DNA from: Schmidtea polychroa
Taxonomy: Eukaryota
Reading direction: 5' to 3'
Assembly: GCA_044892525.1 (NCBI GenBank)
Contig: CM097885.1
Coordinates: 17,362,001-17,426,000 of the forward strand
Length of the DNA stretch: 64,000 nucleotides
Within the stretch, counting starts at the first letter, position 1. Each line of letters opens with the position of its first letter. The notes under the pieces were generated by a model. That model saw only the letters and a program-made list of their open reading frames with translations. It had not been told where the DNA came from and made no database searches. The translations under genes and the position numbers were made by a program. Positions 30,311 through 64,000 of the stretch are shown one piece after another.

Positions 30311-32669
30311 CTATAAATTTTATAATATTCGACTATGTTTTTAGTTAACCATGATTTGTGATAGAAATTTGAAATTATATAATTGTTGGGCTAGAACTGA
30401 CTTCTAGACCCAAACTTGAATTGTGACTGAAAGGTGCAGGTACACAACATGCAAAAGCAAGAAGTTTAGTTAAATATGAAAATTACATCAAATAAACAAT
30501 ATTAACTAAAGGAGAAAGTAACAAAAACCTAAAACACAGAAATTAAATAAAATTATACAAAAGCAAGAAGTGATGCAAAAATAGAACTCAAAAACAACCA
30601 AATAAACACAGATAAGCATAAAACAGACTCGAACAACTTAAAAGACGATAAAAACCGAAAAAATTCCAGAAAAGCCCAGAACATTCCATTAAAATGGCGA
30701 TGACCATCACAAAAGCCAGCTAGAACAATAAAAGTTAGAGGAAATAAATAAATTAGTATTAAAAATAATAAATCTTAAAAAGAAATTCACAAAACATCGG
30801 TTAAAATAAAAATTAAATTAAAAGCAAAATAGAATGTTCTGGAACCGTTCCAAATCCATCATGGACGGCAAATTAACGAAAAATAATTAAAGAATAAAAA
30901 TATAAAAATAAAAACAAAAATTATGGCACAAAAATTGTCATTAAAAATAGCAAAATCGTAAAATAGAAAATTCTGGAATAAAAAGAATTCGAGTTTGTTT
31001 TAATGCATCAATACATACACGTGTACAAAATAGGTATATATACCGACACGTTTCGGTCATAAATCAATCTTTATGCCAATATTTTGCTGAAAAATTATTT
31101 TGGAGAATCATTAGTAAGCCTTTTGATTTGTTGTAATTTTATGTTATGTAATTATATTAATATCGACCTTTTATCTATTAAAAATATTTTTAAGATTTTA
31201 TGTTTAGTAATTCTCGACGGATCAGCGGCGTCCGAGTACGTCTCTGATCGGTCCTGCATATAATTTTAAATTCGATTTCTCATGCACACATGCATTATGA
31301 TTATCTATAACACTCTTTTTTGTTCGGGTCAGTTCGGAGGTCGAACTACTTCATGGTCCTGCCATGGAGTTAGGTCGAGGAAACCCTCCGCCTGACTCTT
31401 TGTATTTATGTAAGGTCGACCGTAAATGGTTGACTCAAAACTCAACACTAAGGTTTGTGGAAGTGGTCACAGTGGGGCCATGGAAGCAATATTCTTCCCG
31501 ACCTTGCACGTAATACAAATTTAAAATCAACATTAAAAATCCATGTCAAATATCTCTACAATAAGGTCTTAATCTGAGTAGAACTCATACCTAATCTTAC
31601 ACAATTCTACAATCACCTTAATGAAGTCGGTTGATCAATAATAGCAATTCCAGTTGTACTTAAACATATGCCGAATCCGGTTTTGGTAATAGGAATTTAT
31701 AGTAACTCAAAGTAATAGAAATGATATAGTGTCCGGCATAGGTGTAGGTATAACTTCATCTAGTTGGGAATTCGAGGTTAATTACTATGTGAATAAAATC
31801 AGTCTACCTATAGATATTACAAATCTAACCGACTAAATTACAAGCGCCATCTTAAAAATTTATAAAAATATAAGTACTTATTACAAAATTTACTAATTAT
31901 AATCAAAATGCAAGTTGTAGATAATTATAAGATTTCAGATATAAAGCATACCGACCCTGAAACTATAAATTGGTAATGGAGAAGTCTTGATAACAAATTT
32001 TAGATGGGGATAGTAGTAGATAAATTTTAGCATAAGGATCAATTAACTTAGAACTAGTTATGTATAGACTGTATATTCGTCAATATTCTGAAATTATAAC
32101 CTAATAGTACCAAGAAATCTGCAAATAATTTCGGAAGACAATGTTGATAAAAAAGGGGTACTCGTAAAGAAGTACACGAGTCGAATATAAAATTATAATC
32201 CCTGAATTCTGAAATGACGAGTGGTGAAGTAATAAAGTGACAAATTGTAGAAATAGAAAACGAAAAAATTTCAAAGTACAAACTCATAAATAAAATTATA
32301 AAATATAGAATTAGAATTTATAGAATATAAACTTATGAATAGAAAAAATTAAAAAACTATAAATTATAAAATATAAAATTGGCAATTATAAAATATAAAT
32401 TTATAAATTACGAAATATAAAATTATAAATTGTAAAGTATAAAATTATAAAGTATAAAATATAAAATTATAAAATATAAAATATAAAGTCATAAATGATT
32501 AAATTACAGACTATAATATATATAATTAGAAATTACAAATTTATAAATTGGAAAATAGAAAATTTTAAATTAGAAACAGAAATTTGTAAATTACAACAAG
32601 TAACTTCCTAAATCATAGAATAGGAACCTCTAAAATGGGAAATATAAACTTCGAATTGTACCATATAAA

Positions 32670-32909
32670 ATTATACTACTAGTATTATTATTATTAACCC
32701 TAATATTATTGTTATTATTGCTGATATTACCATCATTATTACTATTATTCTCATTACCCCTAGTATTATGAATGTTATTATTATTACTATATTATTATTA
32801 TTATTATTATTACTACTATTACTATTATTATTATTATTATTGGTATTATTATTATTATTATTATTACTATTATTATTATTACTATTATTATTAGTACCAG
32901 AATGATTAG

Positions 32910-32975
<66 letters not shown>

Positions 32976-33130
32976 CATTATTATTATTATTATGATTTAT
33001 TTATTATTATTATTATTATCATTTTTTATTATTATCATAATTATTGCTATGATCATTCTCCCTAGTGTTATTCTTATCAACATTATGATTATCACCATTA
33101 TTGTTATTACTATTATTTCATTATTAATTT
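32670..33130. repeat. (ATT)n microsatellite inside the LTR
   Basis: Direct reading of the sequence. Confidence 0.9.
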
Positions 33131-33981
33131 CCAAAAATCAAAATTTGATTGAATTATCGATTTAGGATTTCCCCCACGACTAAATTTAGAACCTACCCCT
33201 TTACTCCAATAAAAATGACCATAATTCCAGAAATCTATTTTTAGTAACCCCCCTCGGAGAAAATGCTAGGACTATTAATTCAATAATAACATGAGTAGGT
33301 GCGCACATATAGACATGTGTAAATGTAGGTAACTATACGTATCTAATAAGTTAATTTAACCCAGGCTCATCAGTGACGGATATATCTTAGTTAACTTAGC
33401 GGCCCCAGAAATTAAAAGTCAGGTAAAACCTCCATTAACCTAAACCAATTCATTGAGGACTAGGAATACATTGGGACAGTCGATACCAACCGTGGAACTC
33501 CACGGAATCAGTCGCATGAATTATCGATAACTGACAAAATTTTATTTTACAAAAATCAAAAGCGATTAGCCAAAGAACATGCTAAATTAAAATTATTCAA
33601 CAAAACTTCTAACACCACTAAATACAAATTAAACTAAAGATACCAACACAGAGTCATATAAAATTCCATTAGGGCTTTGAACAACCGGTCATTCCACCCG
33701 AGTGAAAGATTCCCACCAAATATCTCTAAAATCGAAAAGCTATGGTTAAAAAATTAAACTACTTACAAGCAAATCAAAGCGGACTATACCACTCATGACG
33801 AGTACAACCGAAGGAAAGGCAAGCAGACGAGAAGCTAAGCTCGTTGTTAATACCTGTCGCCTCAGCGTACCCGAATTTAGTGGCAAAAGATTTAAACCCT
33901 GAAATTTCAAATTTGTTATAATATTTAAATTAAAATACATAAAATATAATTTAAATGATCACTTAGTGATAAATACAAATT

Positions 33982-35048
33982 TAGAGAAAAATAGCTAATT
34001 AAAACAAGAGGATTGTTGATAAAATTTTTTTTTGATTATTAGTAGACAAAATATGGAACTTCATTCTATTGTTCCTAGGATTATAGATGTTAGTCTTAAA
34101 ATAAAATATTTCTTTTTATTTTCAAATTCTTAAAGGGAAAAAGGGACAACAAAATCCTGTCTTTAACGTCGTATTACAATCAGTATAAGTGGCTTGATTG
34201 TTCTTTTGTAGAAATGTCCTATTCTGACAGTGGTAGTAACGAAGAAGCCGACCGACAGATGCTTACACGACTCCGGACACGGTACATATGGTACCGTATC
34301 CATGATTGGAACCGGGGCTTGGACCTCGACAACTGGGGCCCAGTAATCAGGAGTGGGCCGGAACCGGACGCCCCAGCTTGGGTAAAAACAGAGCCCACAA
34401 ACGATTTTTTGCAAGAGGCCCGCGACCGAGCGGCCATCGAGGTAGAAGCAGCCCAGATGCGATTGAGGAAAATCGACTTGCAAATCCGGGCAAACAAGGA
34501 AGGGAAAACCGTAGAGAAAAAAATAGCTAATTAAAACAAGAGGATTGTTGATAAAATTTTTTTTTGATTATTAGTAGACAAAATATGGAACTTCATTCTA
34601 TTGTTCCTAGGATTATAGATGTTAGTCTTAAAATAAAATATTTCTTTTTATTTTCAAATTCTTAAAGGGAAAAAGGGACAACAAAATCCTGTGTTTAACG
34701 TCGTATTACAATCAGTATAAGTGGCTTGATTGTTCTTTTGTAGAAATGTCCTATTCTGACAGTGGTAGTAACGAAGAAGCCGACCGACAGATGCTTACAC
34801 GACTCCGGACACGGTACATATGGTACCGTATCCATGATTGGAACCGGGGCTTGGACCTCGACAACTGGGGCCCAGTAATCAGGAGTGGGCCGGAACCGGA
34901 CGCCCCAGCGTGGGTAAAAACAGAGCCCACAAACGATTTTTTGCAAGAGGCCCGCGACCGAGCGGCCATCGAGGTAGAAGCAGCCCAGATGCGATTGAGG
35001 AAAATCGACTTGCAAATCCGGGCAAACAAGGAAGGGAAAACCGTAGAG
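33982..35048 (+). repeat. ~530-bp tandem duplication within the LTR
   Basis: 34214-34516 repeats at 34746-35048 (offset 532); junction at TAGAG microhomology. Confidence 0.92.
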
Positions 35049-35102
35049 GACCTAGAAGAGGCCGGGACAACCCCGCGGAAGAGGGGAAGGCCTCGCAAGT
35101 GA
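34746..35102 (+). CDS. LTR-encoded 118-aa protein with a C-terminal AT-hook (truncated duplicate at 34214-34534)
   Basis: GC-richer coding island ending TPRKRGRPRK*; pyrimidine tract-TAG just before the ATG; AATAAA at 35201. Confidence 0.65.
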   Translation: MSYSDSGSNEEADRQMLTRLRTRYIWYRIHDWNRGLDLDNWGPVIRSGPEPDAPAWVKTEPTNDFLQEARDRAAIEVEAAQMRLRKIDLQIRANKEGKTVEDLEEAGTTPRKRGRPRK

Positions 35103-35306
35103 CCGACCTGACTCATCGTCAAATTTTTTTTTTGTGCAATTATCATCAGTTATGACTTAATTAAACTTTAATTTTAGTGACGAATTATTTTATTCCTTTC
35201 AATAAATTATCTTATGAATTGCGTGCTTAATATCTGAAACTATGTTTATTTATAATATTGATCTTATTATATAATGGAATGAGCGTTATGCTGCAAGAAT
35301 GAATCA

Positions 35307-35753
35307 TTGAATTTTCACCTAGTGTTCAAACTACTTGAAAATTTGCGAAAGGACAGGGAAGAAGCCCAAAAACAGGCCGAGGAGCTCCGCATACGAGTAG
35401 ACAAGCTCAAGGGACGGTGCCGGGAACTAGAAAGCACCTGGTTTAGTCCCGAGGATATGAAAAAGAAGGTGGCGCAGGTCCTTCAACTGCAGGCTCAAGC
35501 CGCGCAGGATCAGATGGAGATCCGGGCACTGAAGCTCCAGCTCCGCGCGTTAGAAACCGAGCGAAATGAACAAGTAGTTCACGGAGCCGCCATAAGCCAA
35601 ATCCGGCCGTTGACTGTGGAACTAGCAGCAATATACCCTCCGGCCGCGAAAGAGAAACCCAAAAGAAAGCGGTTAGGACGGAACATCCGGGAGAAGTTAA
35701 AGAAGGCTAGGTTAGCCGAGTATGAGCGACAAGAAAAACCTACACCAATGTAA
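35307..35753 (+). CDS. LTR-encoded coiled-coil protein with a basic C-terminus; start uncertain
   Basis: GC-richer open frame with heptad character and KEKPKRKRLGR. Confidence 0.55.
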   Translation: MNFHLVFKLLENLRKDREEAQKQAEELRIRVDKLKGRCRELESTWFSPEDMKKKVAQVLQLQAQAAQDQMEIRALKLQLRALETERNEQVVHGAAISQIRPLTVELAAIYPPAAKEKPKRKRLGRNIREKLKKARLAEYERQEKPTPM

Positions 35754-36155
35754 TTCCCGCGATGTGAACAGTCACTTGTGCTAGATATATTGAGTTTTTT
35801 TTTTGATTGTTTATTGCTAATGTCTAAATACAAATTTAGTTAAATTAATGGATGAAGTATATTGTTTGCAAACGTTGAGTGACTGAAAACCGAGGTGTTG
35901 AGAGTTGGGAAAACAATTTCGAATAGGGGACCTGAGGAAATCGGACACAAACCTTCTAACGGTAGTCCGTGAACCCGTGGAGTACTCGACAATTATAGTG
36001 CGTTGATGCGCTCACTTTTTGCGGGTACTCAACCCTTGGTACAGTACCAACGTTGATCACTCAACGGGTACCAAGCGGAAAAACAATGTTGCATGTTGGG
36101 TTACGCTGGTAGCAGCACTTAATCATTCGACCACCTGTAACCCACCATACAAATT

Positions 36156-36869: not shown

Positions 36870-37352
36870 ATGGAATCAACCGGCTACATTACAAAGAGAC
36901 TCGAAAAATTCGTAGATTTAACACACAATTCGTTACAACGGCTAAATCGCAAAGCGGAACAGTTGGTGAAAATCCAAGACGAGATGAGCTTGAAGCCAAG
37001 ACCGCAAGCTGAGGAAATATGTGTAATGATGAAAATAGCAACACCTAATGCAGAATTGACCACTAAAAGAGTCTATCAAATTCAAAATTTACGATTAGAT
37101 AATGCCAAATTCAATATCAAATGGCAGGAGATAATGATAAAAATGGAAACGATTGAAGAAGAAATTAAAGAAGCAATCGAACATCAAATTAAAGACTTTA
37201 GAAAATGCTTCATATGCAGAATCAATGAAATACGAGTAATGACGATCCCATGTGGTCATTTATGTTATTGTGAGAATTGCGCAGAGAAAATTAAACGATG
37301 TAACGTATGCGATACGAACGTTAGAGAAAAAATTGTAATATACCTCCCGTAG
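36870..37352 (+). CDS. Coiled-coil plus C-terminal IAP-type RING (putative E3 ligase), upstream of gag
   Basis: CFIC...IPCGHLCYCENCAEKIKRCNVC...IVIYLP. Confidence 0.85.
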   Translation: MESTGYITKRLEKFVDLTHNSLQRLNRKAEQLVKIQDEMSLKPRPQAEEICVMMKIATPNAELTTKRVYQIQNLRLDNAKFNIKWQEIMIKMETIEEEIKEAIEHQIKDFRKCFICRINEIRVMTIPCGHLCYCENCAEKIKRCNVCDTNVREKIVIYLP

Positions 37353-39710
37353 GGAGATGTTGTCAAATAAATTTATTGTGAATGAAGTGAAAAAAAATTA
37401 TTAAATTATACTAAAAATCCATTATAGCAACCGAAAGGTATAAAACATACGATGAACATAGACATATAAAAGACACAAAATACGTTAAATAAATAGACAA
37501 GCTACACAGCAATTAGAACTAAAATCAAAACCGAATGCAGGACTGATCATAGTCGTATGGATGAGCTGTTCGATAAGATCAGTACGATTTTCACTTCCAA
37601 TTTTCTTTCTTCCTGTTTCATTATTTTGGCATAGAGAGATACGATAACGAGGGGATGACAAGTGAATCGTCCTTACGACACTTGCCCGGATGGGGAAATC
37701 CTGATCACCCTGACGAGAGAATGTAGTAGGATCCATCGCAAATGTTGGGGAGTTTCTGTCGAGTGACTGATCACCACTTAGGGGAAATGAACCAACGCGA
37801 TTATTATATTTTTTTTGTCTGGGAGACTGGGGTTGACTAAAAGGGTGAATAAAAATAGAAAAATAAAATAAAAATTGGAAAAACGCGCGCTAAATGTTAA
37901 AAATTTAATCCGAGAGCAGCTGCGGATTTGAAGAAACCGTTTTTGGACTTCAAATCAGATGAGAAATAATGATTTTTCCCTAGCGAGTGATGAGGCACCC
38001 GAGTACAGCGGCTAACCACCGGACTGTAGTGTCCAGGTGATTATCAGCCAAGGGACTGATGATGCTGGATCACCCAATACAAAAACCCGGATACCACACC
38101 GAGTATTGGGCGCACTTTTTTGAGTTGCTAGCGGGACTTGATACAAAAACCCGGAAGGGTAGCGAGCGAGAGAGACCCAGTTACCTACACCGAGTATTAA
38201 GGAGCCCAGTGAAACGGTTGTGAGATGCGGGTCAACCGGTAAAGGACTCGTACTCAACAGGCAACCAAGATTGGACCAGTTGTGAGGCGGGAGACCGAGA
38301 GTCAACTGCATATCCAATTTCCTTTTATCTTCACTAGTCGGGAGATCTGGTTCATCACTTTTGAGAATCAAGATCGAGGCGATTAGGCATTTCCATGTTT
38401 TTTTTAAATCCTGATAGATAGGATGTTTTTTTCTTCGTGATTATTGCTAGCAGGGGTCGGTACAAAACCCGGATGCCCACACCGAGTACCGATAGGCCCA
38501 GTGAAACGGCGATGAGATTAGAGTTACCGGTATTGGACTCTTTTCAATAGGCGGCCAAGAATTGAGCCAGTTGTGAGGCCTCAGCAGATTAGGAATTTGA
38601 GTAGGAGGAGCCTTAAATTTTTAATTAGTCCGAAAGCCAACTGTCAACTCAATTTAATCGCGGTAGGGACGATAGTAGAAAGCGTCGAGGGGTTGAAGAA
38701 ACCTCATTTAGGGCATTTGAAACCGGTCAGGGACCGAAGACCGCGAATATGGCGTAATGGTGTAAAAGCCCAGGCGTCGAGGAGTCGTAAAAGACTTCAT
38801 GAGATTAAAATGAGTTGATTAAACCGGCCAGGGAGCCGATGGTAATTGAGTGAAATAATTTAAATGAAATAGGAGAGTTGATTGGACCGGTCAGGGAGTC
38901 GATGGTAAATAAATGTAGATGCAGAGGTCGCGCGAACCAAAGCATCGATGAGTAACTATGAAATTGATTAAATTGAAATAGATTAAGTGCGACAAATATG
39001 TAAGGAGTAAAGGAGAATTATGATAAAGCGCCGGCGCAAGAGAAAATAAAACCAGTTTTTGGAGGGGAAAAGCGAACGAATAGATATTAGTTGAGTTACT
39101 GAATTTATTTATTAATGATATGTGTACTTTGATATTTCTATAATTGATATTATATTTGATGATTATAAAAGGGATAGATAATTGATGCGACTATATAGAT
39201 AATTGATATGAGTTATAGATAATTTAAAATCGACTTAAAATCAAAATGGGGCGAATAAAGAGAAGTGTAGAAAGTTAGAAAATTTGAAGCGAAGGAACAG
39301 TAAAATAAAGGGAAAATGGGAAGTAAATGAAGGGTTTAATAAAGAGAATTTATGATATGTACTAGAGGTGTTAATTATTTTAGAATAAAGCAAACAATTC
39401 AGAAAGAAATCAAAGAAATCAAGAAAGCAATAGAAATCAAGAGATCTAGAGAAACCAATCAAAAGCAAGGAATCAAAGAACTTAATAAAATTAGAGAATT
39501 ATAAAGATTAAAGAAAAAGCGAGACAATAATCAGAAAATCGAAGCTCAATCGACGAAGTAGAAAATTTATCAAAAGATATTAAAAGGAGGAAAAATTGAT
39601 AATATAGCTAGCCGAACCAGACGAAAAAGTAAGGGAAACCTCAGTTTATTAGAAAAGAAGAGATAGAAAGAGCCAAGAAAAACAGAAAACTACACAAGAA
39701 ACCAGCATCA

Positions 39711-40986
39711 GTGGAAACAGTATTTGAATCCGACAGTTTAACTAACGAATTTGAGAACAGCGACGATTTCAAACGAACCGAATTAGATCCAATAAGCGAC
39801 GTCGAATCAACTGAAGAAGAGGAAAATATATCCGAGACAACAGAGATAACCGTACTGTGCCAAGAGATAATGTCGGACGGAAACACGAACGAACCAAGGG
39901 TAACGGACCCACCGGAAGCAAGTAATGTGCACGTCAACATTGGAGAATTCAGAGAGAAATTTCGAGGAGAGCCATTCGATGGAAATATAAACCAGCTAGA
40001 AACATTTATAAAAGAATTTGAGGTATACATTACGATATGTCACTGGCCAGACATAGTCGTACGAGAACGAATACCCCTATATCTAAAGGGAAGCGCCCAA
40101 GATGTATACTTGGAGGCGAAATGTGATGCAACAAAGTTGAGAACGTGGAAAGAGATCAAGGAGTTTTTAATAAAAACATTCGGTACCGAAAAAGAAGGAA
40201 ATCGAAAAATGTTAGACTTCCTGCATCGAAAGCAGAAATATAACGAATCCAACGCACTGTACGCATGCGAATTGAGACGACTAGCACGAGAAGCCTTCGA
40301 TTCAAATCAACCAGTTCCGGAAGACAAGATAATAGCCGTATTCGTAGATGGCATGAAACGAGAGGATATACGAGCAACCTTAGGATGTCGAGCACCAGAG
40401 ACGCTGGAAGAAGCACTAAAAATAGCCAACAAATGCGAAACTTACCTAACACCAATACAAGTAGCAGCAATGACAGCAGCTCCAGCAGCTCCAGCAACAA
40501 CAACAACAACCACAAACAACCAAGTCAATAATGCAAATCCAGTAATGAATCAATTCATCCCAGGATCGCAACAGTTGTTCAAAACCTCGCAAACGAGAAA
40601 CCAAGACAATGGAGGTAATATTCAAAATTTTACTAATAATTTCAGGAACAACGACAATCGAACGTGCAACATATGCCAACGATCAGGGCATTGGAGCAAT
40701 GAATGTTATAGAGCAAGGATGTGTCAAAAGTGTGGGAGAAGAGGCCACACGGAAACCATCTGCAGAGGTCCCACGATGCCTACGGGCAGAGGAGGAACTA
40801 GAACCTGCTACAATTGCAACCAGCCTGGACACATGGCCAGAGAATGCACGATGAGAGCCAAACCAAATCAACCAGGATCAAACAACCCAATTCAGAACAC
40901 GCAAATCAACCTCATGCAGGAAATCGAACAATTAAAGGATATGATCCAGCGAATACCGACTAATAATCAACAACAACGAATCAACA
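39711..40986 (+). CDS. gag: Gag (capsid plus 3 CCHC knuckles), first part of the polyprotein; start codon uncertain
   Basis: PFDG...LKGSAQDVY...RKQKYNES (capsid); CNICQRSGHWSNEC, CQKCGRRGHTETIC, CYNCNQPGHMAREC. Confidence 0.92.
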
Positions 40987-43900
40987 ATGATGCAGAGCAC
41001 CGAAGAAATCCGGAAACAACCAAGTAAGCAACAACAAGACCAACAACGAATCGAATGGCAAAGGTTACAAAACGAAGAAGCCAGAGAAATTCAAGAAAGA
41101 TGGAAACAACGGGAAGCGAATCCCGGAAGAATAAATATGATGAGGTTAACAAATAAAGAGGAATCTCACACTGCGGAGCAGTGTGTTAACAACGAAGGCA
41201 GTGATCTGATAAAAACGACGAAAGAAAATGAGATTGATCCACAGACAAAATTGAGCAGCGAAGAGAAAATACAATTGATTAAAGAATTTACCAAAGAGGA
41301 GAAAGAAAGGAGACAAAAGAAAGATGAGAGCCAAGACGAATCAAAAAGCAATGAGATAGTTACAAAAAATCGAATTCAGAGGGTACTACTAAAAAAAATC
41401 GAAGACAGAATCAAAAACGAAAACCCTACATTAACTAAGGAACAAATCAAAGAAAAAGTGAAAGAGCATTGGTTCAGGAAAAATGAGTGGTTCGAAAAGA
41501 AAGAACCACATACCAAAGCTAAAATAAACATGTTGAGACAAATGCGGAGTGATCAGACGGATCAGGAAGATGAGAAAAGTGAGGTGAGTAGCCTGGGAGG
41601 CGAATTATTTCAGTCAAGTGAGGAAAACAACGAACCGAAAACACCTCCAAACAGTGAAACACCTCAAAGTAGTGATGAGAGTGAAAATGATGACATGAAA
41701 TCAATGATAGAAAAAGATGATGAGGAGATATTTGAGGAAATTTTCGACACAGTAACAGAAATAGAGCGGAATGAGAGCTACATCAACGAGCTAACATATA
41801 GAAAATGCGTAAAACTTATAACTCAAGTATACCAGTGTGAAGGAGGTATAATAACGGCAGCATGGAAAGATTTAGCAACAAGATATAAAGAGAAACTAAA
41901 GGAAGCAGGCCCAGATCAATATCAGGTAAGTATTCAACACCCCGAGATTCAGATACAGACTATTGAATTAAAAGGAACAAATACCGATGAACTGTACAAC
42001 TGGGTACAGGAAAAAATGGGAACGAGCCATAAAAATAAACAATTATATGTCGATGGTTACAAAGTTAAAATGGGCATACATTTGGTAGATGCGATGATAT
42101 GGCCAAACGGAACTAACATCTTAACCTTAGAGAAAACCAGAGACGACGAATCAGTGGCAGAAATGTTCCAGAAAATCCAACAAGTGTTTAACAATGAAGT
42201 GGAACCAGAATTGGAAAAGATCGAACGAAAAATAATGAAAGAAAACCAAATAATCTTGGTTAAACAAGCTATCGATCAGGCAAGAAAATATATTAATAGA
42301 CTGAGAGAAAGATGGCCACAACTAATGAAACAATTTGTCAAAGACGTACGAGACACGGAAATTATGAGATTCGAAGATAAACGAGCGACAGAATTGATAT
42401 CTAAATACGGAGAATACGAGAGAACCAAATGCGAACGAGAAACGATAAAAATAAAGGTGAAGTTGCCAAATGAAGAGAAACAAATAATAGAAGTTTACCC
42501 CGATTGCCAAGTTGACGAGTTAGTGCAAATCATGGATCAAGAAATCATCCAAAAAGCTCGAGAAAATAGTGAGGATGGAATGATCGAAGATGTGATAATA
42601 ATGTACAACCGGCATATGTTAGAAAGAGGAGACCGAACTGTAATTTACGAACTGGGAATCTGGGAAGATGGAGCCGTCATCAATATAATTGCGATGGATG
42701 AACCATCGGGTGGACACAAGAACGCCACCAAAACAGAGCAACAAATTAAAAGATTCCAATGGGGGATGAGAGCAAAGATGGATCGAATAATAGATATTTA
42801 TAACCATTGGCTAAAAGATGATAAATTAAAATTAGCAGCATTCAATGATAAAGATTGCAAACTGATACCATGGAAAAAGGTGTGGATTGAAAGTGAAGCT
42901 CGATGGGATTGGGAGCAGCAAAAGTTGGAACCAAATTGGATAGATAATATACCCGAAGAGATCGCAGCAGTATGGGTAAGAGAGAAACCAATCGATGCTT
43001 ACCAGGATATATTACCACAAGAATTCCAAAATGAGTTACAATCAGGAGAAGATGAGGAGATACGAGAACCGGTAAGGTTAGCACCATTCACGTGGAAAAT
43101 TGAGAATTGGATGGAAAAGATAAAATCAGCAAGGGAAGAGAAAATCACACGATTAGTAAGTCCACCGTTCTACTCAGGATTAGGTGAGTACAAGATGAAA
43201 TTGCGAATATACCCGAACGGAGATGGGGTAGGAAAAGGAAGTTATGTGTCGGCATTCTTCATCATCTGCAAAGGGAATTATGACGATAAGGTACCATGGC
43301 CGTTTAGCAGAAAGGTAACGATAGCGATCGAACCACTGAAAGATAGCCTTAACATACATAAAGAAACAATGAAACCAGACCCAAGGAGCACATGCTACCA
43401 ACGACCAACAACATCAGAAAATATCGCTTCTGGGACGTCTAAATTAATACGTCTAAATTACATTGAGAATGAACAATCAATATTTGTGAAAGACAATGCT
43501 ATCCAGATAAGAGTAGAAGTTGAATCAGAGCAAGAAATGAACCAACGACTGAACATACCAGAAAATCAACCGAGAATCTGTATGATGAGGAGAAGAGTGC
43601 CTGATTCAGGATATCTACCAATAGACGCCGACGCAGATGAGGAGGAAGCAGCAACATTGTTGGAAGCACAAAAATGTAAGGAATTGATGGAGATATTACA
43701 AAACGGGGCGAAAAATCGTCGACGAGCGGTAGTAGAACTAGCAAAATGGATAGCCGAATCATGCAAAAGGATTCAAAACCTACGAAAAATCGTTAAAGCG
43801 ATTGAAGAATATCGACGGGTATACGTATGGTACCCTGAACAATTTGGTGAAATCATTCGGAAATGGAAACAACAAGAGTGGGCCGAAAACTTACCTGAGA

Positions 43901-45204
43901 AATATCAACTAAAAATATTCTTGCCAGATTTTGAACCAATGGAAAAGGAATTCTACACAACAGCCAAGGTCAGGGAAGGTAAAAAGAGAATACCTTATGA
44001 ACTCCCATTCCACTTACAACACGAGGGACGATCATTAGACGACGATATCGAAATTGGTGTGACACCACTCCAAGGAGAAATTGTGAACAGATTAACGGTG
44101 AGTAAAATTGCAGGGAGAGAATTAAGAAGAAGAGAAATAAAGCAAAAATCATCTACACAACAACCAGGAAGTTTAGACACACCAGAAGTTCCAAATGCGG
44201 TTAGTGAAGTAACGATCGAAACAACGGGAGAAGACGAAATACTAGACGAATTACAAGAGATAGTAGAAGCAGGCGAGATTATGAGAGCATCGCAATCAGG
44301 AGATCTATTCATCGACGAAGGTGAACCAACAACTGATGATCTAGATGGATTTGTATGTGCGCAAAGACAACCAGTGGAAACGACAGAAGCCGAGACGGAT
44401 TTAGATAATGTGGGGGGAAGTGCCAATAAAGATGTAACCACAACCGATGAATGGAGTAACTGGAGAGTAGATCCAGGAGCGACCACGTCAAAAGATACAA
44501 CTTACAATCCGCCAAAACGGAAAGAAACCGGAACGGCTATGGATCGACGAACAAGAGGAAGACCAAAAACAGATAAAGCAGAGGTGGAACCAAAATCCAA
44601 AATTCAAGCACAAATGGAACAGGTAAAAACTAAAATGGATAAACTAAGCGCATTAGTAAAACAAGTCAAAGTGAAAACAAACGTCCGGGAACAAGGGACA
44701 CGATGGATAAACGACTTATTAGCTAACATGTTAGCGTTATCAAATCCAGATGTGAAAAGAGTAATGAGGAAGGATAATATTCCGACCGAAGCCAAACAAT
44801 TATGGGCGGTATTGAAACCGATATTAATGAAAATCATGGATAATAAAATTCGATTAACGTTAAAGGATCCCGTGGAACTCAGATTAATTGTGGAACATCT
44901 GTTAAGCAGATCAGAAGACCAAAATCGATATTTAGTGGGATTAGCATATTTGGTGTATAACGTCATTGGTCAATATAAAAAACGAATGCCAAAATATAAC
45001 GCAACTGGTTATGAATTCACAGTAACAGAAATAATCCAGCGATCAATAGAACCATATATACTTGAACAAGGGGGATGGAGAAACTTCATCGAGTCAACTG
45101 GAAAGAAAGATCAAACGGAAATGATGCAAGCAAAGTTACGCGATTTGCTAACGGAATTCGAAGGAACAATCAATATGAACAACCCAAGAGCAAGCCGAAA
45201 GGGA
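40987..45204 (+). CDS. Polyprotein accessory region: up to three ubiquitin-like domains, a TRAF-type MATH domain (~43084-43524) and a Bcl-2-like domain (~44690-45090)
   Basis: PFTWKIEN...SPPFYSG..YKMKLRIYPNGDG.GKGSYVS.F...KGNYDD..PWPF (MATH); YILEQGGWRNF (BH2); IKIKVKLPNEEKQIIEVYPDCQVDEL...PSGG (UBL). Confidence 0.8.
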
Positions 45205-47569
45205 ATGAATGCCATAATAACCACGATACTGATATGGATGATGTGCATCAAAGGAACGGAGTCATTTGCAGTATACGACTGCGACAACATAAAAATCCAT
45301 GAGAAATATTCATTAAAGGATACGGAAGACTGTAAAGCGGCAAACCCAAGAAAATTACAAACAGTCATGGCATCAGTCTCGTATAACGTATATCAAGAAG
45401 CAGATTTCATCAAAACCATGGTCCAAGAATGTACGGTAACCAGAAAGATATTTGCACATCACTGCGGTTCATCCTCCCACTCAACAATCATAGAACCGGG
45501 ATTGGAATCGACAGTAATATTACTATCAAGAGAGGAATGCGAGGAAGGATTCCGATCAGGGAGAATCCACTTAAGGCAAGGGATTGAAATTGCTGCAGAA
45601 CCAGGAAAAATAAAAACGACTCGCGTGTATACGGCAGGCAGAATCACTAAAGGAGATGGAACATGTGAGACAGGAACATACACCTTGAACGGACAACTGG
45701 TTAGTGGAGTGGTCGTAATAGAAAGCTACGAAGCTAAATTAGAAAGGTATCAAGGTTATTTCGACCCTGACACGCAAGCAATGAAGAAATACCCAAGTTG
45801 TCTCGCATCAGATCGATCATGTTCAACCGGAATGTCAACTCTGGTATACCATGCGGATCAGAAAGTATGTCGACTAATGTTACTCAAAACAGCAATATTC
45901 GAAGAAATCCAAGGGAAAGTATACAGTGAACCAAAAGGAGAAGCAGAAAAACGAGCGATGGAAGAGCTGAGAGCAAGGAAAGGATTCAGAGAAGACGTAA
46001 TAACATCGAAATTGGAATCGGAAGTAACACCCACAGCGATAATCTCCAAAGACGATGGAATAGGAATGAGGTTCATAAAGAACAAAATGGTGAGTAAATG
46101 CGATGAGATGGTGATCAGCACCAATTATAAAGGGATCTACTTGTCGCGGAGAACCCTAGCAAATGCAGTCGGAAGACTAAGCGAAAAGGATGTCAAACTA
46201 TATTTATACGCTAATAATAAGATGGATTTCTTATATCACAGAGGATTAACATCCACGGAAAAAGTCTACCATGATCTGTTAAGAAACGATTGCCTGCTCA
46301 ACAAAGAAATATTGAGAACAAAATTAGCAATGGCGATTACAAATCCAGATAACGCAAATCCGTTACTACCATTACAGGAAGGATATTTCGGACGAATCGT
46401 GGGTGAAGTGATGTACACCTACCAATGGCAAAAGATAATGGCAAGATTGCCAGAAAACCCTACAATACCAAGAGATAAGTGTGCAAACGAACTCGAAATT
46501 ATTCACGAAGGTAAACCCAGGTTTGTGCAAGCAGTCACTAGGGTGATGAACCCGGTAGGGTTTCAACCAAATCTGTTTAATTGTAGTAATGCATATGGGC
46601 CAATGTATGAAAAAGAAGATGGACAATGGGTTCAATTCCCAAGTAAAACAATCGTAGTAATTTGGATTGACGGAACTAACAACAGAACTAGAGTTCAAGC
46701 CGATAGACGTATCCCAGAGTGGATTATATACACCAAAAGATCTCGAATCAGCAAGAGCCCACCTGTTATTCCCAGCGCAAAGACAAGCAATCTTATCAAA
46801 TATAGTGACTATTTCTGGAGGAAATAATTATGGGGAGAGCCCGAACTACGAGCTATTATTATCACCAAGTCACTACCAACAAGCAACAGCAAACATGATG
46901 AAGGCTATGTGGGGTAGATTTTTAGTATTTGGCCAAATGATGGCAGGAATACTCGGAATTATTCTGATAATACAAATAGTTAGAGTGATCCTAACTCAGA
47001 TGCTAGCATGTTTTGACATCTATAAGCGCGAGAGAAAAGTAAATTGGAAACTTGCAATTGGATTCTTACCGTTCTTAGCGAAAACAATGGTGTTGCATGG
47101 ACACTCAAAGGATATTCATCGAATAAAAAGATTGTTGAAAATATTAACGCAAATGAAAGGGACAGACGAAGAAGTCGGATGTAAGTTCAAAGTGATAATG
47201 AGATTAGAAGCAGAAAGAACTCAAGAGAAAGCGAAAAGAACCGGGAAGTGGAAAAAGTGGATGAATCTCAGACGAGACGATGATAGTGATGACAATGATG
47301 ATTTCGACGACGACGACAATAATCAAGGAGGAGTAATGTTGATAAACAAAAATACAGCCACTTGGGAAAACGAAAAAATGAAACCATGGGGACCACCATA
47401 TTTACAGGCACCAACTAATGGACCAATGCGACGACCAGGAACAATGAGAGAACGGATAAGAATGGGAACCGGAAGATTACCCGTACCGAATATTTATCCA
47501 ATGGCTTATGAGCCAAATTGGGCAGCACTGGACCCAACAATGACCAAGCCAGTTAAAAATGTGGGGTAA
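45205..47569 (+). CDS. env: Envelope-like glycoprotein (chuvirus/Monjiviricetes G-like), frameshifted at ~46660
   Basis: Signal peptide MNAIITTILIWMMCIKGTES then FAVYDC; HCGSSSH; AGRITKGDGTCETGTY; Cys-rich ectodomain; SGLYT; TM segment FLVFGQMMAGILGIILIIQIVRVIL. Confidence 0.75.
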
Positions 47570-47572
47570 GAG

Positions 47573-50500
47573 GTGGAGACACGAACGATTGCAGTATTGC
47601 AGACACCAGCAGGACCATCATTAACTATCACGGTCGAAGTAAACGGAATAGAGATGGACGCAATGATTGATACCGGAGCAAATATCTCAGCAATAAATAT
47701 GAATATGTTACCAGGAAGACTATGGCCATGCATTGAGGAGACAACCATGGATGTAATAACATGCAGCAAACAATCCATAGCGGTAGTAGGAAGAGTATGG
47801 TCAACGATCGAATACAAAGGGGTTAAAGTTACAACGTACCTCGCAGTCATTAGACAGCTAAGCGTATCATGTATAATTGGAACAGATGTAATGCCGCAAT
47901 TATTGAAGGAAATTGTGATTGATTTGAGTTCCATGAAATTAAAAGATAAAACTGGACAGATATGCACAATGAGAACAGAAGTGAGATGCTCCGAAAAAAT
48001 GATAATACCAGCACGTACCCAGACAATATGTTATGTCAAGGTCGATAACGAAGCCAAAGGAGATATGATATTTGAACCAAGTCAAAAATTCGAGAAGAGA
48101 AGGGAGCTGCCATTGGCAAGAGAAATTGTCAGTATAAATGAGGATAACGAGATACCCATCAACATCACCAATTTTGATGAGGAAGATAAAGTAATCTACG
48201 AAAACGAGAGACTTGGAAAACTCACACCAATGATGAACATTGAGCTGCCGGAGATAAAAAGCGAGGGAGCAGACGAAAAAGAATTATGGACCATCGATAG
48301 CGAACTCCTAAATGAAGACGAAAAGGAACAACTCAGACAACTACTGATTGAGTTTAAAGATATTTTTGCGGCTTCAGATTTGGATTTGGGTACTAGCGAT
48401 GTAACTCAACACATTATACCATTAACAGATGAGACACCCATAACCTTGAGACCATATCGATTGGCTGAAGCACAAAAAACGGTAGCAGAGGAAGAAGTAC
48501 AAAAGATGTTAGATGCTGGTGTAATAGAACCTAGTTGCTCACCATGGCAATTCCCAGTAGTAATGGTCAAAAAGAAAGATGGCACACAGAGATTTTGTAT
48601 TGACTATCGGAGGTTGAATGCAGTAACTAAAAGGGATACGTACCCACTGCCAGACATAAACGAAATGTTACAGATGTTGCATGGAGCAGCATACTTTACA
48701 TCTTTAGATTTAAAGAGTGGATACTGGCAAATTAAAGTTAAAGAGGAAGACAGAGAAAAGACAGCCTTCACCATCGGAAAAGATCTATATCAGTTTAAAA
48801 AGATGCCATTTGGATTAACAAACGCACCTGCTTCGTTTCAAAGATGTATGAACTTTGTGACACACGGAATTAAACAATGTATGGTGTATATTGATGATCT
48901 GTTAATTTATTCAGGTACTTTCGAGCAACACTTAATCGACATCAGAAACGTATTCATAGGACTGAAACAATGGAAGCTGAAATTGAAACCGTCAAAATGC
49001 GATTGGGCAAAGGAGAGAGTCACATTTTTAGGACACATTGTGTCGGCAAAAGGAAAAGAACCAGATCCGAGAAACGTTGAGAAAATAAAGAATTGTCCGA
49101 TACCAAAAACCGTGACTCAGGTACAAGAATTTCTGGGATTATGCGGATACTACCGCAAGTTCATCAAAAATTATGCAACTATCGCAAAACCAATTCAGGA
49201 ACTAACAAAAAAAGATACTCCATTTCTGTGGGAAAGGGAACAGCAAATAGCGTTCGAATCGCTAAGAGATAAATTAATAGCCTCGCCTATCTTAATCCAC
49301 CCAGATTTCAAAAAGCCTTTTTTATTAGCAACTGATGCAAGTGGATACGCATCAGGAGCTGTGCTAGGACAATGGGATGAGGAGAAAAGAGAAAGAGTCA
49401 TCGGATATTATAGCAAGACGTTCAAAAAGCACGAAAAGAATTACTCAGTCACAGAAAGAGAAGCTTTAGCAATAATTCAGGCGATAAAACATTTCAAATA
49501 TTTATTATGGGGACACGAGATAATTATTACTACGGATCACCAACCTCTAGTTTGGTTGGGCCAACATAAAGAAGCATCTAGCCGATTAATGAGATGGGCA
49601 ATGCAATTACAGGAATATTCCCCATACATCAAGTTCAAGTCAGGAAAAGCAAACGCAAATGCAGATTGCATGTCGAGATTCGTATTTGAAGAACTCATGG
49701 ATCATGACGTCAGGCGAATATGCATGATAATCGCGGAAGATATCGATTTTACCAATCTAAAGAACGAACAAAAGGAAGACAGCGAATTGAAACTAATAAT
49801 CGAATTCCTGGATAAAAACGATATGAAAATATTCAACAACGATGATCGATTGAAAGAACATATGGAGAAAAATCGTCACAGATATACAATCGAGAAAGAA
49901 TGGCTATTGGTAATGGATGGCGACAAACGACTGATGTGTCTACCAGAAAGTAGACGGAAAGAAATTATGATTCAATACCACGACGGTAAATTGGGCGGAC
50001 ATATGTCAGCCAAGAAAACAGAAGCAAGGCTCAAACAGAAATATTACTGGCCAAATATGAGCGATGACGTGAAAGAATGGATAAAGAACTGCTTGATATG
50101 CGCAACCAGAAAAACAACGGGCAGTAAACTAAAGCCGCCATTGAAACCAATGCCGATACCGCCAGAACCGATGACAATGATTGCAATGGATGTAGTTGGA
50201 CCACTACCAGAGACTAACAGTGGAAATGTGTATATATTGGTAATAACTGATTATCTGACTAAGTTCCCTGAAGCATTTGCGATGCCAGACCAAAAAGCAC
50301 GAACGGTTGCAAGGATATTAGTGGAAGAGATCTGCTGCAGATATGGAACACCAAAACAAATCTTAACTGACCAAGGAACTAATTTCATGAGCGAGATAAT
50401 AAATGAAGTGACAAATTATTTTAGAATTGCCAAATTGAGAACCTCGCCATACCACCCGCAAACGAATGGTCAGACAGAAAGATTTAACGGCATACTAATA

Positions 50501-51120
50501 GACATGATGTCAAATTACGTGAGTAAACATCAAAAGGACTGGGATGAATATATTAAGTTGTGTCTAATGGCTTATCGAATGTCAATACACTCATCAACGA
50601 AAATGAGTCCGTTTAAACTCATGTATGGAAGGGAATGCAACATGCCGATGGATCTCGAATACCAACCGCCAATCTCACAATATATGGAGATAGACGATTA
50701 TGTGACAAAGTTCAAAGAGAGAATGCAAGAAATATGGAAAACCGCAGGGATGAACATCCGATTCAACCAAGAAAGTTATAAGGAATTGCATGATTAAAAG
50801 AAGAACGTGCAAAACCATCAATTTAAAGTCGGAGATTGGGTTATTATAGAAATACCCGAGTTAATCCCAGGAACGGCAAAGAAATTACAACGTAATGGCA
50901 GAGGGCCATATGAAATCATCTATGTAAACGAGAACAACGCTAGAGTAAAGTTGGTTAACAACCCACTAATTAGACCCATTTATGTGAATACGTGTCGATG
51001 TAAAGCAGTAGCGAAAACTGCCACTAAAGACCCAGAAACAAGGAAGATAATCACGAGATCACAAACAAATACCACAACGGAACCAGAAGTAAGCGGTAGA
51101 TTAACTAGATCACAGACAAG
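47573..51120 (+). CDS. pol: Pol: protease, RT, RNase H, integrase with GPY module; in-frame TAA at 47567 and 50795
   Basis: IDTGA; FCIDYRRLN; LDLKSGYWQ; MPFGL; YIDD; ATDAS; HDGKLGGH...CLIC; MDVVGP, TDQG, GQTER; FKVGDWV...GPY continuing in frame after the stop. Confidence 0.97.
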
Positions 51121-53887
51121 ACGGATATTCATGTTGAGGGGAGAAACAAGCAGCAGCGCCCATAAAGGAACCGAAGCAGAAAGCGAAGCTGACGCAATGG
51201 CAAGGAGCCAAGCAACATGGAATATGACAGTAAAAATAGCACGAGAAATTGTACCAGAATGGGCCGATATAACCAATAAATACCAAGTATTGGGCAAACT
51301 AATGTTAGTAGCAGAAAGATATGCGAAAGGACGAAGATATGCCGAAGGATTACAAATACCAACCCAAATATATGAACTAATCCGGAGATTACCAATCATG
51401 TTCCTAACAAGTGATTTGAGTAATAACTGGCCAATCCATCATGCAGTGAAAGCAGGACAAGAAAAACGAGCATTAGAGATTATACGAATAATGGAAAACT
51501 GCAAACAATCAACAAACGTCAAAAACAGTAAAGGAAAAACTCCACTGATGAAAGCCATAGCAATAGGCGCGTCAAGAGAAGTACTCAGAGAATTATTGAG
51601 AACGGGATCCACGTTGAAAGAAAAAGATAACAAACAACGAACCATCTTACGTTATGCCGTCAGGTCAAAAAGACCTAGTATACTAAACTTTATCACGGGA
51701 AATGCAACCGCTGAAGAGGCCGAGGTGTTGGGACAGAGCATTGAACCAATTCTGGAAGCCATCAGAGGAAACTTAGACAGAACCGCAGCAATGTTAATCA
51801 AATGGAAACAAAACGAATTAAAAGCGGAAGTAATCGATATAAATCAATTTCAGAACACCGAAAATATCGTACTAAGGAGCGCCATATACTCAAGACCACC
51901 AATGCCAAAAACCATTAAAGCAATATTACAAAGAAATAGAGCAGAATTGACAGGTAATTGGTGGAAATGCACAAAAGCACATACGATGAAAAAGCAACTA
52001 GAAATAATAGTGTGGGAATGGCACCGGAAACAACGGAAATATCAAGGAACCAAAGAAGAACGAGAAAGTATCCACAACGATAAAAAAGAGATAATTAAAA
52101 AATACGAAGAGATGATCAAAGCGACAAATGTCGAGGACGACATTTTTGGGAAAACCCCGGGTGAGAGGAATGACGACGATGACGACGACGAAAGGATGGG
52201 GGATAACGATAACAACCCAGAGGAAAACGACAGAGAACAAAATCCGGAGGGCGGAGAAACAACGGATGATGATGAGGAGTTGGAAGAAGACGAAGAGGAC
52301 CAATGTCGAGGTGAAGATCAGGGATTCGACAAAACAGAAAACAAAAAGCGAAAGTCCCCACTACACAGCATAGTATTTCGGAATCAAATCCAGCCAATCC
52401 TACTACAAAGAATATTTATAATACTAACATCTATCTGTTTAACGGAAACAAAAAATATGAGAATCGTAAGAGAAGCTTTCCAAGAAGGCGAAGTATTTAT
52501 GATAAAAGTCAGCGATTACGACGGAAACGCCGTCGGAATATGTGTGCAACTAATGGAAGGAACAGGAGTAAGTTGTGATTTCAGATCGATAACAAAAGGA
52601 AAGATCTTTAGCAGCCAAAAAAGAGACCCCAGGCTATGCGGAGATTATGACATCTGTAGGGACATAACAACAGAGGAAATGGAACTAGAAAGAGCCAATG
52701 AAACCGGAGTACATTTTCAACTTAACATTCTGAAAGAAGGTATCGAAATAGAGGATAAAGGGAGTCGATCAATTACACATGTATGCATCAGAGAAGACAG
52801 AGATATATGCATAATAACAGATATGACACAAGACCACAAATTCTTCTGGGGAGAAGTCAAACCAAATACCCCTACTGTGGTATGCGCAGGAACACAAGGG
52901 ATAGTAGTATGTAAAGGAACAAGAACTGCACCAAGAAAAGACAAACCAAAGAGTATGGCAATGAAACAAGGTCCATTGATGGGGATAGCAACCAAGAAGC
53001 CAAACAAATCAGTTAGAACAAAAACAACAACACAACAAAATCAAACCGAATTAATAACAACAACAACATGGATTAACGAAGTAATTAAAGACGAAAGACG
53101 GGAAGTGCAGATAACTATTAACCTCAACAAGAAAGGTGAAGAGGTAATTACAGTCAAAAACCAAGAAGGAGAACCAATCATAAGGATATGTGTAATGGAT
53201 AAGACGGGAATAATCGACTGTACAACAACACCGATAGACAAAGGTGCAGACGTTAAAATGGAGACAGGGAAACGGAAAGAGCGATACCAAGTATGTATCC
53301 TTAAGAAAGGAAGAGGAACCAGCGTATGTCAACCAATAACTCGACAAAAACCCCAATTAATAAACATACCGTGGATACCCCGAGATCAAGAAGGGGGAGA
53401 GAAACGGGAAAATCACAGTCACCTAACAGAAAAAGAGAAGGAACGATTACATCAAGCATTCAAGAAAATCAAAGCACCAGAAACAAACACCACAGGTAGT
53501 ACAATATTAACGACAGAAAAAACAAATAATGGAACAACGATAATCACAAAGATGATATGGATAACTAGCGCGATAGTAAGCACGATAATAGCGTTAGCAA
53601 TGATTCAGTGGATAAGAACCACCAAAAGATGTAAACAAAAACCGAGAAACCGAAGAAAATGGCCCAAAGTGGAAAAATTTGAATACGGTATTCCAACCGA
53701 GAATCTGAATCTAGGAGAATACGAGGTGGTAGAGGACCCCGGATCCAGTGGATTGTGGATGTCGGAACTACCAAGAATACCCACACCTAACGAATGGGCA
53801 CACGAAGTCGATATATACCGACTAACGGACGAAAGATATGGGGGAATGCGCACGCTGCATTCCGGCCCCATGGCGACACTGGTATAA
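51121..53887 (+). CDS. Post-integrase extension: ankyrin repeats (~51420-51690), acidic linker, then a type-I membrane protein (signal ~52400-52450, TM ~53552-53614)
   Basis: WPIHHAVKAG, GKTPLMKAI, QRTILRYAV; hydrophobic IFIILTSICLT; repeated Cys-containing beta units; MIWITSAIVSTIIALAMIQWI followed by a basic stop-transfer. Confidence 0.8.
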
Positions 53888-57500: not shown

Positions 57501-57860
57501 GCCAAGAAACATGGATACAAGATGAAATTGAGATGGTTTCCAAATGGTGAGGGAAAGTTTAAAGATCGGTGCATGTCCATGTATATGCAAATCTGTAAAG
57601 GAGATTTTGACGACCTAATAGCATGGCCATTCCGACATAGATTAAAAATATCTCTCTTGGGATCAAAAAAGACACATATAATGTGCTGTCGAGCATCAAG
57701 TCCAGCATGGAATAAACCGATTACAGAGGTTAACCCTGCGGTAGGAGTAGCAGAGTTTATGCAGCTATACCAGTTTAATGACGGGTCCTACATAGAAAAG
57801 GACACTATATTCTTCCTAATCGAACTAGACGAGGAAGGACCAACAATAGAAATACGATAG
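54579..57860 (+). pseudogene. TRAF-like gene (RING, TRAF zinc fingers, coiled coil, MATH) split by a LINE insertion
   Basis: 5' part MQNKAEE...RLLCADAACRRL (54579-54716) and 3' part QTRCGCRLCRGC...CEWTGRVKEL..H...YMWKI...SKPFYAKKHGYKMKLRWFPNG...WPF (56589-57860). Confidence 0.88.
54732..56587 (-). mobile_element. 5'-truncated non-LTR retrotransposon with restriction-like endonuclease (NeSL/R2/R4 group)
   Basis: Minus ORF ending at 55462: GGIGL thumb, CRQC...ETQAHVFNHC, PDLLI...IVDIKVPYE, KY, IIGTLGSW; ~730-bp 3' UTR ending AATAAAA; candidate TSD TCAAA at 54727 and 56588. Confidence 0.88.
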
Positions 57861-59179: not shown

Positions 59180-59261
59180 CAAAAATTAAAATTCCGTGTA
59201 TAAAGTGTAGATAATAAATGTATGAAATAATAGTGGTAGTAATAGTGTAATTATTTAGACA

Positions 59262-60860: not shown

Positions 60861-61009
60861 TCGAAGAGAGAGGTCGCCTGTAAATAAGAATGATTTAAAA
60901 AAAAAAAAAAAAAAAAAACATCAAACCAAAACCAAATAAAAATTACAAAACCAAAAAATTCAAAATAAAAAGAAGACGAAAGGAAATATGATGTGTATAT
61001 TTTGTAGAT

Positions 61010-61777: not shown

Positions 61778-61853
61778 ATGAGACAAAATAACCGTGTAAA
61801 TAAATTGTAAATAAAGCCAAGTAATTATTATTAACGCATATGTATATGTAAAG

Positions 61854-63194: not shown

Positions 63195-64000
63195 TGTTGG
63201 GCTAGAACTGACTTCTAGACCCAAACTTGAATTGTGACTGAAAGGTGCAGGTACACAACATACAAAAGCAAGAAGTTTAGTTAAATATGAAAATTACATC
63301 AAATAAACAATATTAACTAAAGGAGAAAGTAACAAAAACCTAAAACACAGAAATTAAATAAAATTATACAAAAGCAAGAAGTGATGCAAAAATAGAACTC
63401 AAAAACAACCAAATAAACACAGATAAGCATAAAACAGACTCAAACAACTTAAAAGACGATAAAAACCGAAAAAATTCCAGAAAAGCCCAGAACATTCCAT
63501 TAAAATGGCGATGACCATCACAAAAGCCAGCTAGAACAATAAAAGTTAGAGGAAATAAATAAATTAGTATTAAAAATAATAAATCTTAAAAAGAAATTCA
63601 CAAAACATCGGTTAAAATAAAAATTAAATTAAAAGCAAAATAGAATGTTCTGGAACCGTTCCAAATCCATCATGGACGGCAAATTAACGAAAAATAATTA
63701 AAGAATAAAAATATAAAAATAAAAACAAAAATTATGGCACAAAAATTGTCATTAAAAATAGCAAAATCGTAAAATAGAAAATTCTGGAATAAAAAGAATT
63801 CGAGTTTGTTTTAATGCATCAATACATACACGTGTACAAAATAGGTATATATACCGACACGTTTCGGTCATAAATCAATCTTTATGCCAATATTTTGCTG
63901 AAAAATTATTTTGGAGAATCATTAGTAAGCCTTTTGATTTGTTGTAATTTTATGTTATGTAATTATATTAATATCGACCTTTTATCTATTAAAAATATTT
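63195..64000 (+). repeat. 3' LTR (first 806 bp; continues beyond the window)
   Basis: Colinear with 30384-31189 at a constant offset of 32811; I found two substitutions (30451/63262 and 30631/63442). Confidence 0.97.

Follow-up and report, generated by a model that had tools for sequence, protein, structure and literature searches.

A candidate cleavage code for the element's own protease in the polyprotein of a Burro-type giant Gypsy element of Schmidtea polychroa

Organization of the element

The window, that is, the whole 64,000-nucleotide stretch of Schmidtea polychroa DNA that was analysed, contains from position 30384 onward an LTR element that spans 38.0 kb when the neighbouring stretch is included and is bordered at both ends by the same 5 bp. 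A 532-bp tandem duplication lies inside its 5' LTR at 33983-35048. The single large polyprotein encoded between the LTRs (Table 1) changes frame in the window copy near 40945-41027 and 46661-46827 and is interrupted by stops at 47567-47569 and 50795-50797. These breaks are a property of the window copy, because about 53 of the 150 genomic matches that were scored (tallied by eye) keep an uninterrupted 4,791-aa frame. ORFs downstream of the polyprotein encode TRAF-like and IAP-like proteins according to Pfam.

The gag part encodes a capsid and three CCHC knuckles, and the env-like protein lies in frame between gag and pol, with the order PR-RT-RH-IN supported by Pfam in both a natural copy and the window. 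The domain labels of an earlier first-pass annotation, made from the letters alone, hold up: Pfam supports MATH, env, PR, RT, RH, IN, and ankyrin in the window, and the Bcl-2-like label stands through alignment to a sister family, whose own Pfam Bcl-2 match falls below the curated cut-off. Among the cargo, MATH, BIR, and ankyrin are identified by Pfam, the Bcl-2-like part only indirectly, and the ubiquitin-like part as a lead only. The MATH domain is 34-43% identical to cellular TRAF-type proteins. Structure prediction by AlphaFold without an alignment on 40984-44100 reached a pLDDT of 35, too low for use. The env protein opens with a hydrophobic signal from about 45214, and a signal-peptidase cut is likely near 45265; all 12 of the env starts listed show a hydrophobic stretch followed by A-x-D-C.

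By its layout against the published description of Burro/GYPSM1, the element is a Burro-type giant Gypsy, an already described planarian kind: its LTR-bordered span exceeds 30 kb, and other copies keep a single polyprotein frame of 4,791 aa, against the 4,800-5,100 aa or so expected of the kind. As far as that description goes (PMC6431247), the shared features comprise a length over 30 kb with LTRs, one ORF of about 4,800 aa, gag, three CCHC knuckles, BIR, MATH, ubiquitin-like and Bcl-2-like parts, an in-frame env between gag and pol, a dUTPase-like part, and ankyrin. The likeness to Burro1 is one of published layout. The same review places the ubiquitin-like part between MATH and BCL-2, whereas in the window copy it precedes MATH, where it is a lead only.

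Table 1. Features of the element in the window, with candidate protease sites
Feature	Position	Strand	Basis or remark
5' LTR	30384..36149	+	5.77 kb; 99.3-99.5% identity with the 3' LTR
Gag-cargo-env-pol-ankyrin-membrane-protein polyprotein	39633..53887	+	five long ORFs; Pfam
EITVLC, candidate pre-capsid site, weak	39843..39860	+	profile rank 18; absent from the first-pass list
QVAAMT, candidate capsid/nucleocapsid site, weak	40458..40475	+	generic rule only; absent from the first-pass list
QINLMQ, post-nucleocapsid site, training site	40902..40919	+	sole rule match past the last CCHC in the scanned gag piece
Second post-nucleocapsid site, split by frame break in the window copy	40977..40994	+	single frame in one natural copy
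RINMMR, likely site	41128..41145	+	profile rank 2 of about 4,700; flank hydrophilicity rank 3 of 91
KINMLR, likely site	41521..41538	+	profile rank 3; flank hydrophilicity rank 1 of 91
Ubiquitin-like stretches (lead only)	41830..42750	+	Atlas feature matches 0.82-0.85; Pfam ubiquitin matches in relatives
MATH (TRAF-C) domain	43087..43521	+	PF22486, E 4e-28
RICMMR, likely site, 17 codons past MATH	43573..43590	+	rank 1 in the two-site and four-site profiles
Bcl-2-like stretch, approximate ends	44827..45090	+	alignment to sister family, E 2e-9
TINMNN	45166..45183	+	rejected as protease site
Env-like fusion glycoprotein	45205..47026	+	PF24664
TIAVLQ, pre-protease site, training site	47585..47602	+	catalytic Asp is residue 26; overlooked by the first-pass annotation
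Aspartic protease domain	47627..47902	+	PF00077, PF13975; DTG intact at 47669-47677
QICTMR, post-protease site, moderate	47957..47974	+	profile rank 9
RICMII, RNase H/integrase site, training site	49715..49732	+	about 12 codons past the Ty3 RT chain end
RIFMLR, integrase/ankyrin site, training site	51122..51139	+	first rule match past the integrase-terminal L-[RT]-[SR] motif
Ankyrin repeats	51434..51697	+	PF12796, E 2e-8
RIFIIL, ambiguous	52409..52426	+	tied rank 6-7; also begins the hydrophobic signal of the second membrane protein
RICVMD, probable false positive	53183..53200	+	rank 4; in the likely luminal domain of the second membrane protein
3' LTR, first 806 bp	63195..64000	+	5.2 kb in all, extends past the window

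A recurrent motif at polyprotein junctions

The first-pass annotation had listed ten short strings at domain boundaries and interpreted them, under the pattern I[NCF][MLT][MLI], as a protease cleavage code. All ten are present on the forward strand where it had placed them, and seven match the pattern in frame (40902, 41128, 41521, 43573, 47957, 49715, and 51122), whereas TINMNN (45166) and RIFIIL (52409) do not match and the string at 40977 spans the frame break; the last was left out of every statistic.

Published accounts of comparable proteases supply a register for these strings. Ty1 protease sites are described as carrying Val/Ile at P2 and P2' with hydrophilic P3/P3' (PMC6952103), the Gypsy-like protease ASPRV1 as preferring hydrophobic P2/P2' (PMC11402058), and foamy virus sites as resembling those of the yeast elements (PMC3185560). 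All seven pattern sites and TIAVLQ (47585) fit a hydrophobic P2 (Val/Ile), a hydrophobic P2', and a polar P3, and 45166 fails. The motif occurs at the borders of the nucleocapsid, protease, RNase H, and integrase, and it adjoins MATH and ankyrin. In a gapless alignment, residue 1 of HIV-1 PR falls one residue from the start set by 47585. The Ty3 RT chain 4OL8_A, when aligned, terminates at the RNase H motif: RICMII follows about 12 codons later, and in the cargo-free relative L050 the site matches this end exactly; the distance from 49715 to the first motif of the integrase is the same in two sister families. For the post-PR junction, which the first-pass annotation had also named, the case is moderate, QICTMR not being kept at that place in relatives.

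A Ty-like rule was applied to corresponding windows of other elements. In the 13-residue pre-protease window it finds a match in five of the six sequences with a protease, this element included, with the Asp at 25-27, and in the sixth family a second copy does match in that window. Where the anchor was found, matches occurred in 5/5 RNase H/integrase windows and 5/5 post-integrase windows, counts that include a probably wrong post-integrase match in family D and an RNase H site picked by eye in family C. As the rule was written once the junctions had been seen and covers about 2-3% of positions, only the pre-protease result is strong; the 7/7 matches in the long post-nucleocapsid window are uninformative for the same reason, about 2% of positions matching.

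Taken in this register, with P3 polar, P2 Ile, P1 Asn/Cys/Phe/Ala, then the cut, P1' Met/Leu/Thr/Val, and P2' Met/Leu/Ile, the motif x-I-[N/C/F/A]↓[M/L/T/V]-[M/L/I] is likely where the aspartic protease of the element itself recognizes and cuts the polyprotein, as judged from sequence comparison. The linkers around RINMMR and KINMLR are very hydrophilic, a setting typical of short linear motifs, and the repeated string might accordingly be a short docking motif, or else a site for a host protease; this is highly improbable, as the motif is found both at the start of the protease and at the RT/integrase border, ends that the element's protease produces in Ty3 and foamy virus, and its letters vary with the element family.

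Bare enrichment and junction-anchored profiles

Nominally, the pattern I[NCF][MLT][MLI] is found seven times in 4,743 aa against 1.2 expected. In the comparison with shuffled sequence that had been proposed as a check, it does not exceed chance after a look-elsewhere test: over 31 shuffles, the best post hoc pattern of the same form averages a nominal -log10 p of 9.2, compared with about 3.5 for the original pattern, and the best pattern of that form in the real sequence is an unrelated Asp-rich one. The bare enrichment carries no evidential weight, because the pattern was chosen post hoc and shuffles give stronger ones. As to the position of the motif relative to folded domains, the Pfam-defined stretches make up 34% of the protein and contain none of the seven pattern sites (p about 0.055), compared with 31 of the 91 generic rule matches.

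A different result was obtained with profiles anchored on junctions. A four-site profile was trained on 40902, 47585, 49715, and 51122, and about 4,700 other positions were scored; 43573, 41128, and 41521 took ranks 1-3 (three observed vs 0.06 expected, 0/1,000 shuffles), followed at ranks 4 and 5 by 53183 and 53288, both inside the second membrane protein past its signal. This profile is not fully blind, since at least two of its training sites were also on the first-pass list. With a two-site profile (47585 and 49715), 43573 again ranked first, and the excess had a p of 0.01-0.02. Unlike the bare enrichment, the junction-anchored test does exceed chance.

These results bear on the view that the motif is a chance product of post hoc motif picking on an Ile/Met-rich protein in which short hydrophobic strands open domains or signals. 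The superior patterns of the shuffles fit such a view, as do the in-domain look-alikes RICVMD, QVCILK, and DICIIT and the coincidence of RIFIIL with a signal peptide start, but profiles trained only on position-defined junctions retrieve other sites, the register agrees with the HIV-1 PR and Ty3 RT chain ends, and the accessory ORFs of the same element contain no pattern match in 2,215 aa. Chance is therefore considered improbable. The reading of the motif as a cleavage code is supported, on present sequence data, by junction position and Ty1/Ty3-type specificity, and the bare pattern by itself is no evidence for it.

Individual candidate sites

At the gag end, the core of EITVLC changes conservatively between two subfamilies while its flanks differ, and QVAAMT is located directly past the last capsid helix. 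No comparable site occurs over the 684 codons from 41521 to 43573, a segment that encodes the two ubiquitin-like stretches and MATH, and the dUTPase-like/RT border of the element likewise lacks the motif.

Several candidates were rejected. TINMNN (45166) has Asn at P2', lies below the top 22 of the profile, differs from the window in all seven copies covering the site, and has no match at that place in relatives. The Bcl-2/env junction looks like a signal-peptidase junction instead of a protease site; the Bcl-2-like part would end in the env signal and require no protease site there. RICVMD (53183) is positioned downstream of a signal amid Cys-bearing strands, where a cytosolic protease should not reach, and QVCILK and DICIIT are in-domain look-alikes that were judged false positives by topology.

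Relatives, copies, and the origin of the additional sites

Six diverged relatives were compared, namely genome families B, C, and D, P0001, L049, and L050, of which families B, C, and D are mostly 42-51% identical to the element from RT to integrase. Protein searches gave one match, together with three ankyrin-only and 13 TRAF/MATH-only matches, and metagenomes gave three loci; no closer sister family at 60-80% identity was found in protein searches, own-genome family searches, or viral contigs. Within an element, sites resemble each other more than they resemble those of other elements (p 0.013 in the set made up of this element, P0001, and L050; p 0.046 over six elements); with this element removed, the likeness is not significant (p 0.13). 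In five diverged relatives, no extra sites beyond the junctions exceed chance. In L050, which lacks ankyrin, the stretch that separates the integrase from the last membrane protein's signal holds one site, and this post-integrase site is also the start of that signal. P0001 carries its ankyrin part between env and PR, preceded only by a look-alike that is not significant.

Conservation among family copies had been proposed as another check. In nine comparison copies, 85-99% identical, the sites are kept with mostly conservative changes, although 51122 is disrupted in one. Variable columns are equally frequent in core (9/48) and flank (87/465), and the core count is inflated by a 43573 row misaligned across a deletion in one copy and a pre-capsid window three codons off. 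With copies as similar as 85-99% identity, the test has no discriminating power. The comparison drew on 20 stretches, among which L052, L053, L056, and L057 held no family copy and L063 was left out. In the contigs of a second species, two motif-codon differences appear among those listed (40 of 177 difference rows), both synonymous, in a set where 31 of the 40 are synonymous anyway.

At the DNA level, no cassette duplication of a site was seen, the site codons and flanking DNA being unrelated: the best flank pair shares 22/48 bases, against a background mean of 14, and at least 21 shared bases are found in 2.4% of random pairs. The lack of DNA likeness beyond the site residues speaks for selection at the peptide level and against a recent copying of cassettes. 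Because no DNA cassette duplication is visible, the new sites have probably arisen or been kept under protein-level selection. An unlikely alternative, though less so than chance or docking, is that the protease cuts at no more than the four or five canonical junctions and that the extra copies past the nucleocapsid and past MATH are relics of old internal duplication, or of recombination at a site, and are unneeded for cargo release. It would agree with the relatives that carry no extra sites above chance, with the grouping of three extra copies within about 210 codons past the nucleocapsid, and with the absence of a conservation signal among family copies. Against it, the unrelated site codons and flanks leave near-identity at the protein level only, which needs selection, and RICMMR stands directly past MATH, 684 codons from the nearest copy.

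Proposed processing and cargo release

If the motif is the site of the element's protease, cutting at it would yield about 12-14 products. On the gag side, these would be the capsid, the nucleocapsid, and three small spacers of 25, 50, and 131 aa. The cargo would comprise a 684-aa ubiquitin-like-plus-MATH protein and a Bcl-2-like protein of about 560 aa ending in the env signal, followed by env, a 124-aa protease, a 586-aa dUTPase-like-RT-RNase H protein, and a 469-aa integrase; at the 3' end, an ankyrin protein of about 430 aa and the second membrane protein would be released. Host signal peptidase would generate both membrane-protein N-termini. The cargo would thus emerge as a few multi-domain blocks rather than as one product per domain.

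The earlier proposal that captured host domains were fitted with the element's cleavage site, so that one polyprotein releases many separate effectors, accordingly finds partial agreement. Ankyrin is bracketed, by 51122 and less surely by 52409, and the C-terminal end of MATH is marked by a site (43573); however, the ubiquitin-like stretches would stay fused to MATH, 45166 fails, and the diverged relatives show no extra cargo sites above chance. An own site on both sides of a captured domain was found at best for ankyrin, and MATH and the Bcl-2-like part each have one bordering site or junction within multi-domain blocks. Ankyrin appears to be the best case of fitted cargo, with RIFMLR and RIFIIL on either side of the insert versus a single site in L050. 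More tentatively, a virus-like, near-consensus code, specific to each element family and placed around captured signalling domains, may let the transposon particle, as it matures, release a TRAF/ubiquitin-like, an ankyrin, and a membrane-anchored Bcl-2-like protein separately, all of them acting on host cell death; this possibility is held with somewhat less than even confidence.

Relation to known systems

Published work has cast the Burro polyprotein as a 'tinkerer', so far hypothetical, of the apoptosis and ubiquitin pathways (PMC6431247), and the accessible literature on Burro contains no processing map or site motif. BURRO1 is reported to be up-regulated in planarians after smedwi-2 RNAi (PMC8532177). 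The site map implies roughly twelve distinct products whose ends are predicted, whereby the cargo question becomes testable. The element type, protease processing, and the capture-release principle are already known; what is added is a specific prediction rather than a system of a new kind.

As reported for Ty1, Ty3, and foamy virus (PMC6952103, PMC3185560, PDB 4OL8), the proposed sites have Val/Ile at P2, an aliphatic P2', a small or polar P1, and a polar P3, and they fall where PR begins and where RT gives way to IN. Those systems have about two to four loosely similar sites, whereas the element has up to about ten candidates of a tight Ile...Met-rich form, some of which adjoin non-core domains. 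A consensus site is described as generally absent for retroviral proteases (PMC3185560), and a near-consensus processing code would be unusual for a protease of this type.

In enterovirus G carrying a torovirus PLCP (PMC10715025), a captured domain likewise sits between the virus's own protease sites and is released by that protease. That system is an RNA virus with a 3C cysteine protease and one cargo, whose release was established by reverse genetics as cited there, whereas in the present case the carrier is an LTR element, the cargo forms several blocks, and release is predicted from sequence alone. If the prediction is true, an LTR retrotransposon would have the capture-and-release layout known from enterovirus G. 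A giant Gypsy element of orchids bears a captured host-like AlkB domain as well (PMC9289625), but there the cargo occupies its own separate ORF and a cleavage site is unneeded.

Relatives and other families

Directly 3' of the Bcl-2-like stretch of the main element lies the env signal (window 45214-45265), which could double as the C-terminal membrane anchor of that stretch. At least three further Burro-like families bearing env are present in other stretches of the same genome (L031-L046), with shorter open frames of at most about 3,050-3,360 aa, and Bcl-2-like stretches also occur in these families. An ORF 3' of the polyprotein of one genome family, family D (L044:4352-6181), resembles a DEDD-type exonuclease, as judged by eye, and a Pfam search of this ORF returned no match over the cut-off.

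In P0001, a diverged relative found by protein search, an additional degenerate protease-like stretch followed by ankyrin repeats (together residues ~1943-2350) is located between env and the true protease. Its catalytic motif, read by eye, is D-T-A, and a candidate cut site is placed at 26 residues, the same spacing as in the main element. In L049 (61-3057), a relative from metagenomes, a Phe-led motif of its own, F-[TA]-[IV]-[SIV], appears by eye in three copies downstream of the knuckle; this triple series resembles the Ile-led series of the main element.

Accessory ORFs, LTRs and other retroelement remains

The RING-only accessory ORF contains a motif look-alike at 37014, which is not above chance. 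Three more ORFs of 533, 191 and 341 aa (window 59259-62840) appear coiled-coil-like by eye, and a Pfam search of them gave nothing over the cut-off. The 5' LTR contains a 532-bp tandem duplication (window 33983-35048) that is absent from the 3' LTR. Elsewhere, window 9279-9628 is 92% identical to 11927-12276.

Accessory ORFs of the main element and separate retroelement remains
Feature	Window position	Strand	Source
RING-only accessory ORF	36870-37352		Pfam
TRAF-like accessory ORF (zinc finger + MATH)	56523-57860		Pfam
IAP-like accessory ORF (BIR + RING)	58001-59179		Pfam
Ordinary Gypsy pol, broken, separate from main element (PR, RT, RH, IN)	21981-25064		
Reverse transcriptase fragment	11578-12303	(-)
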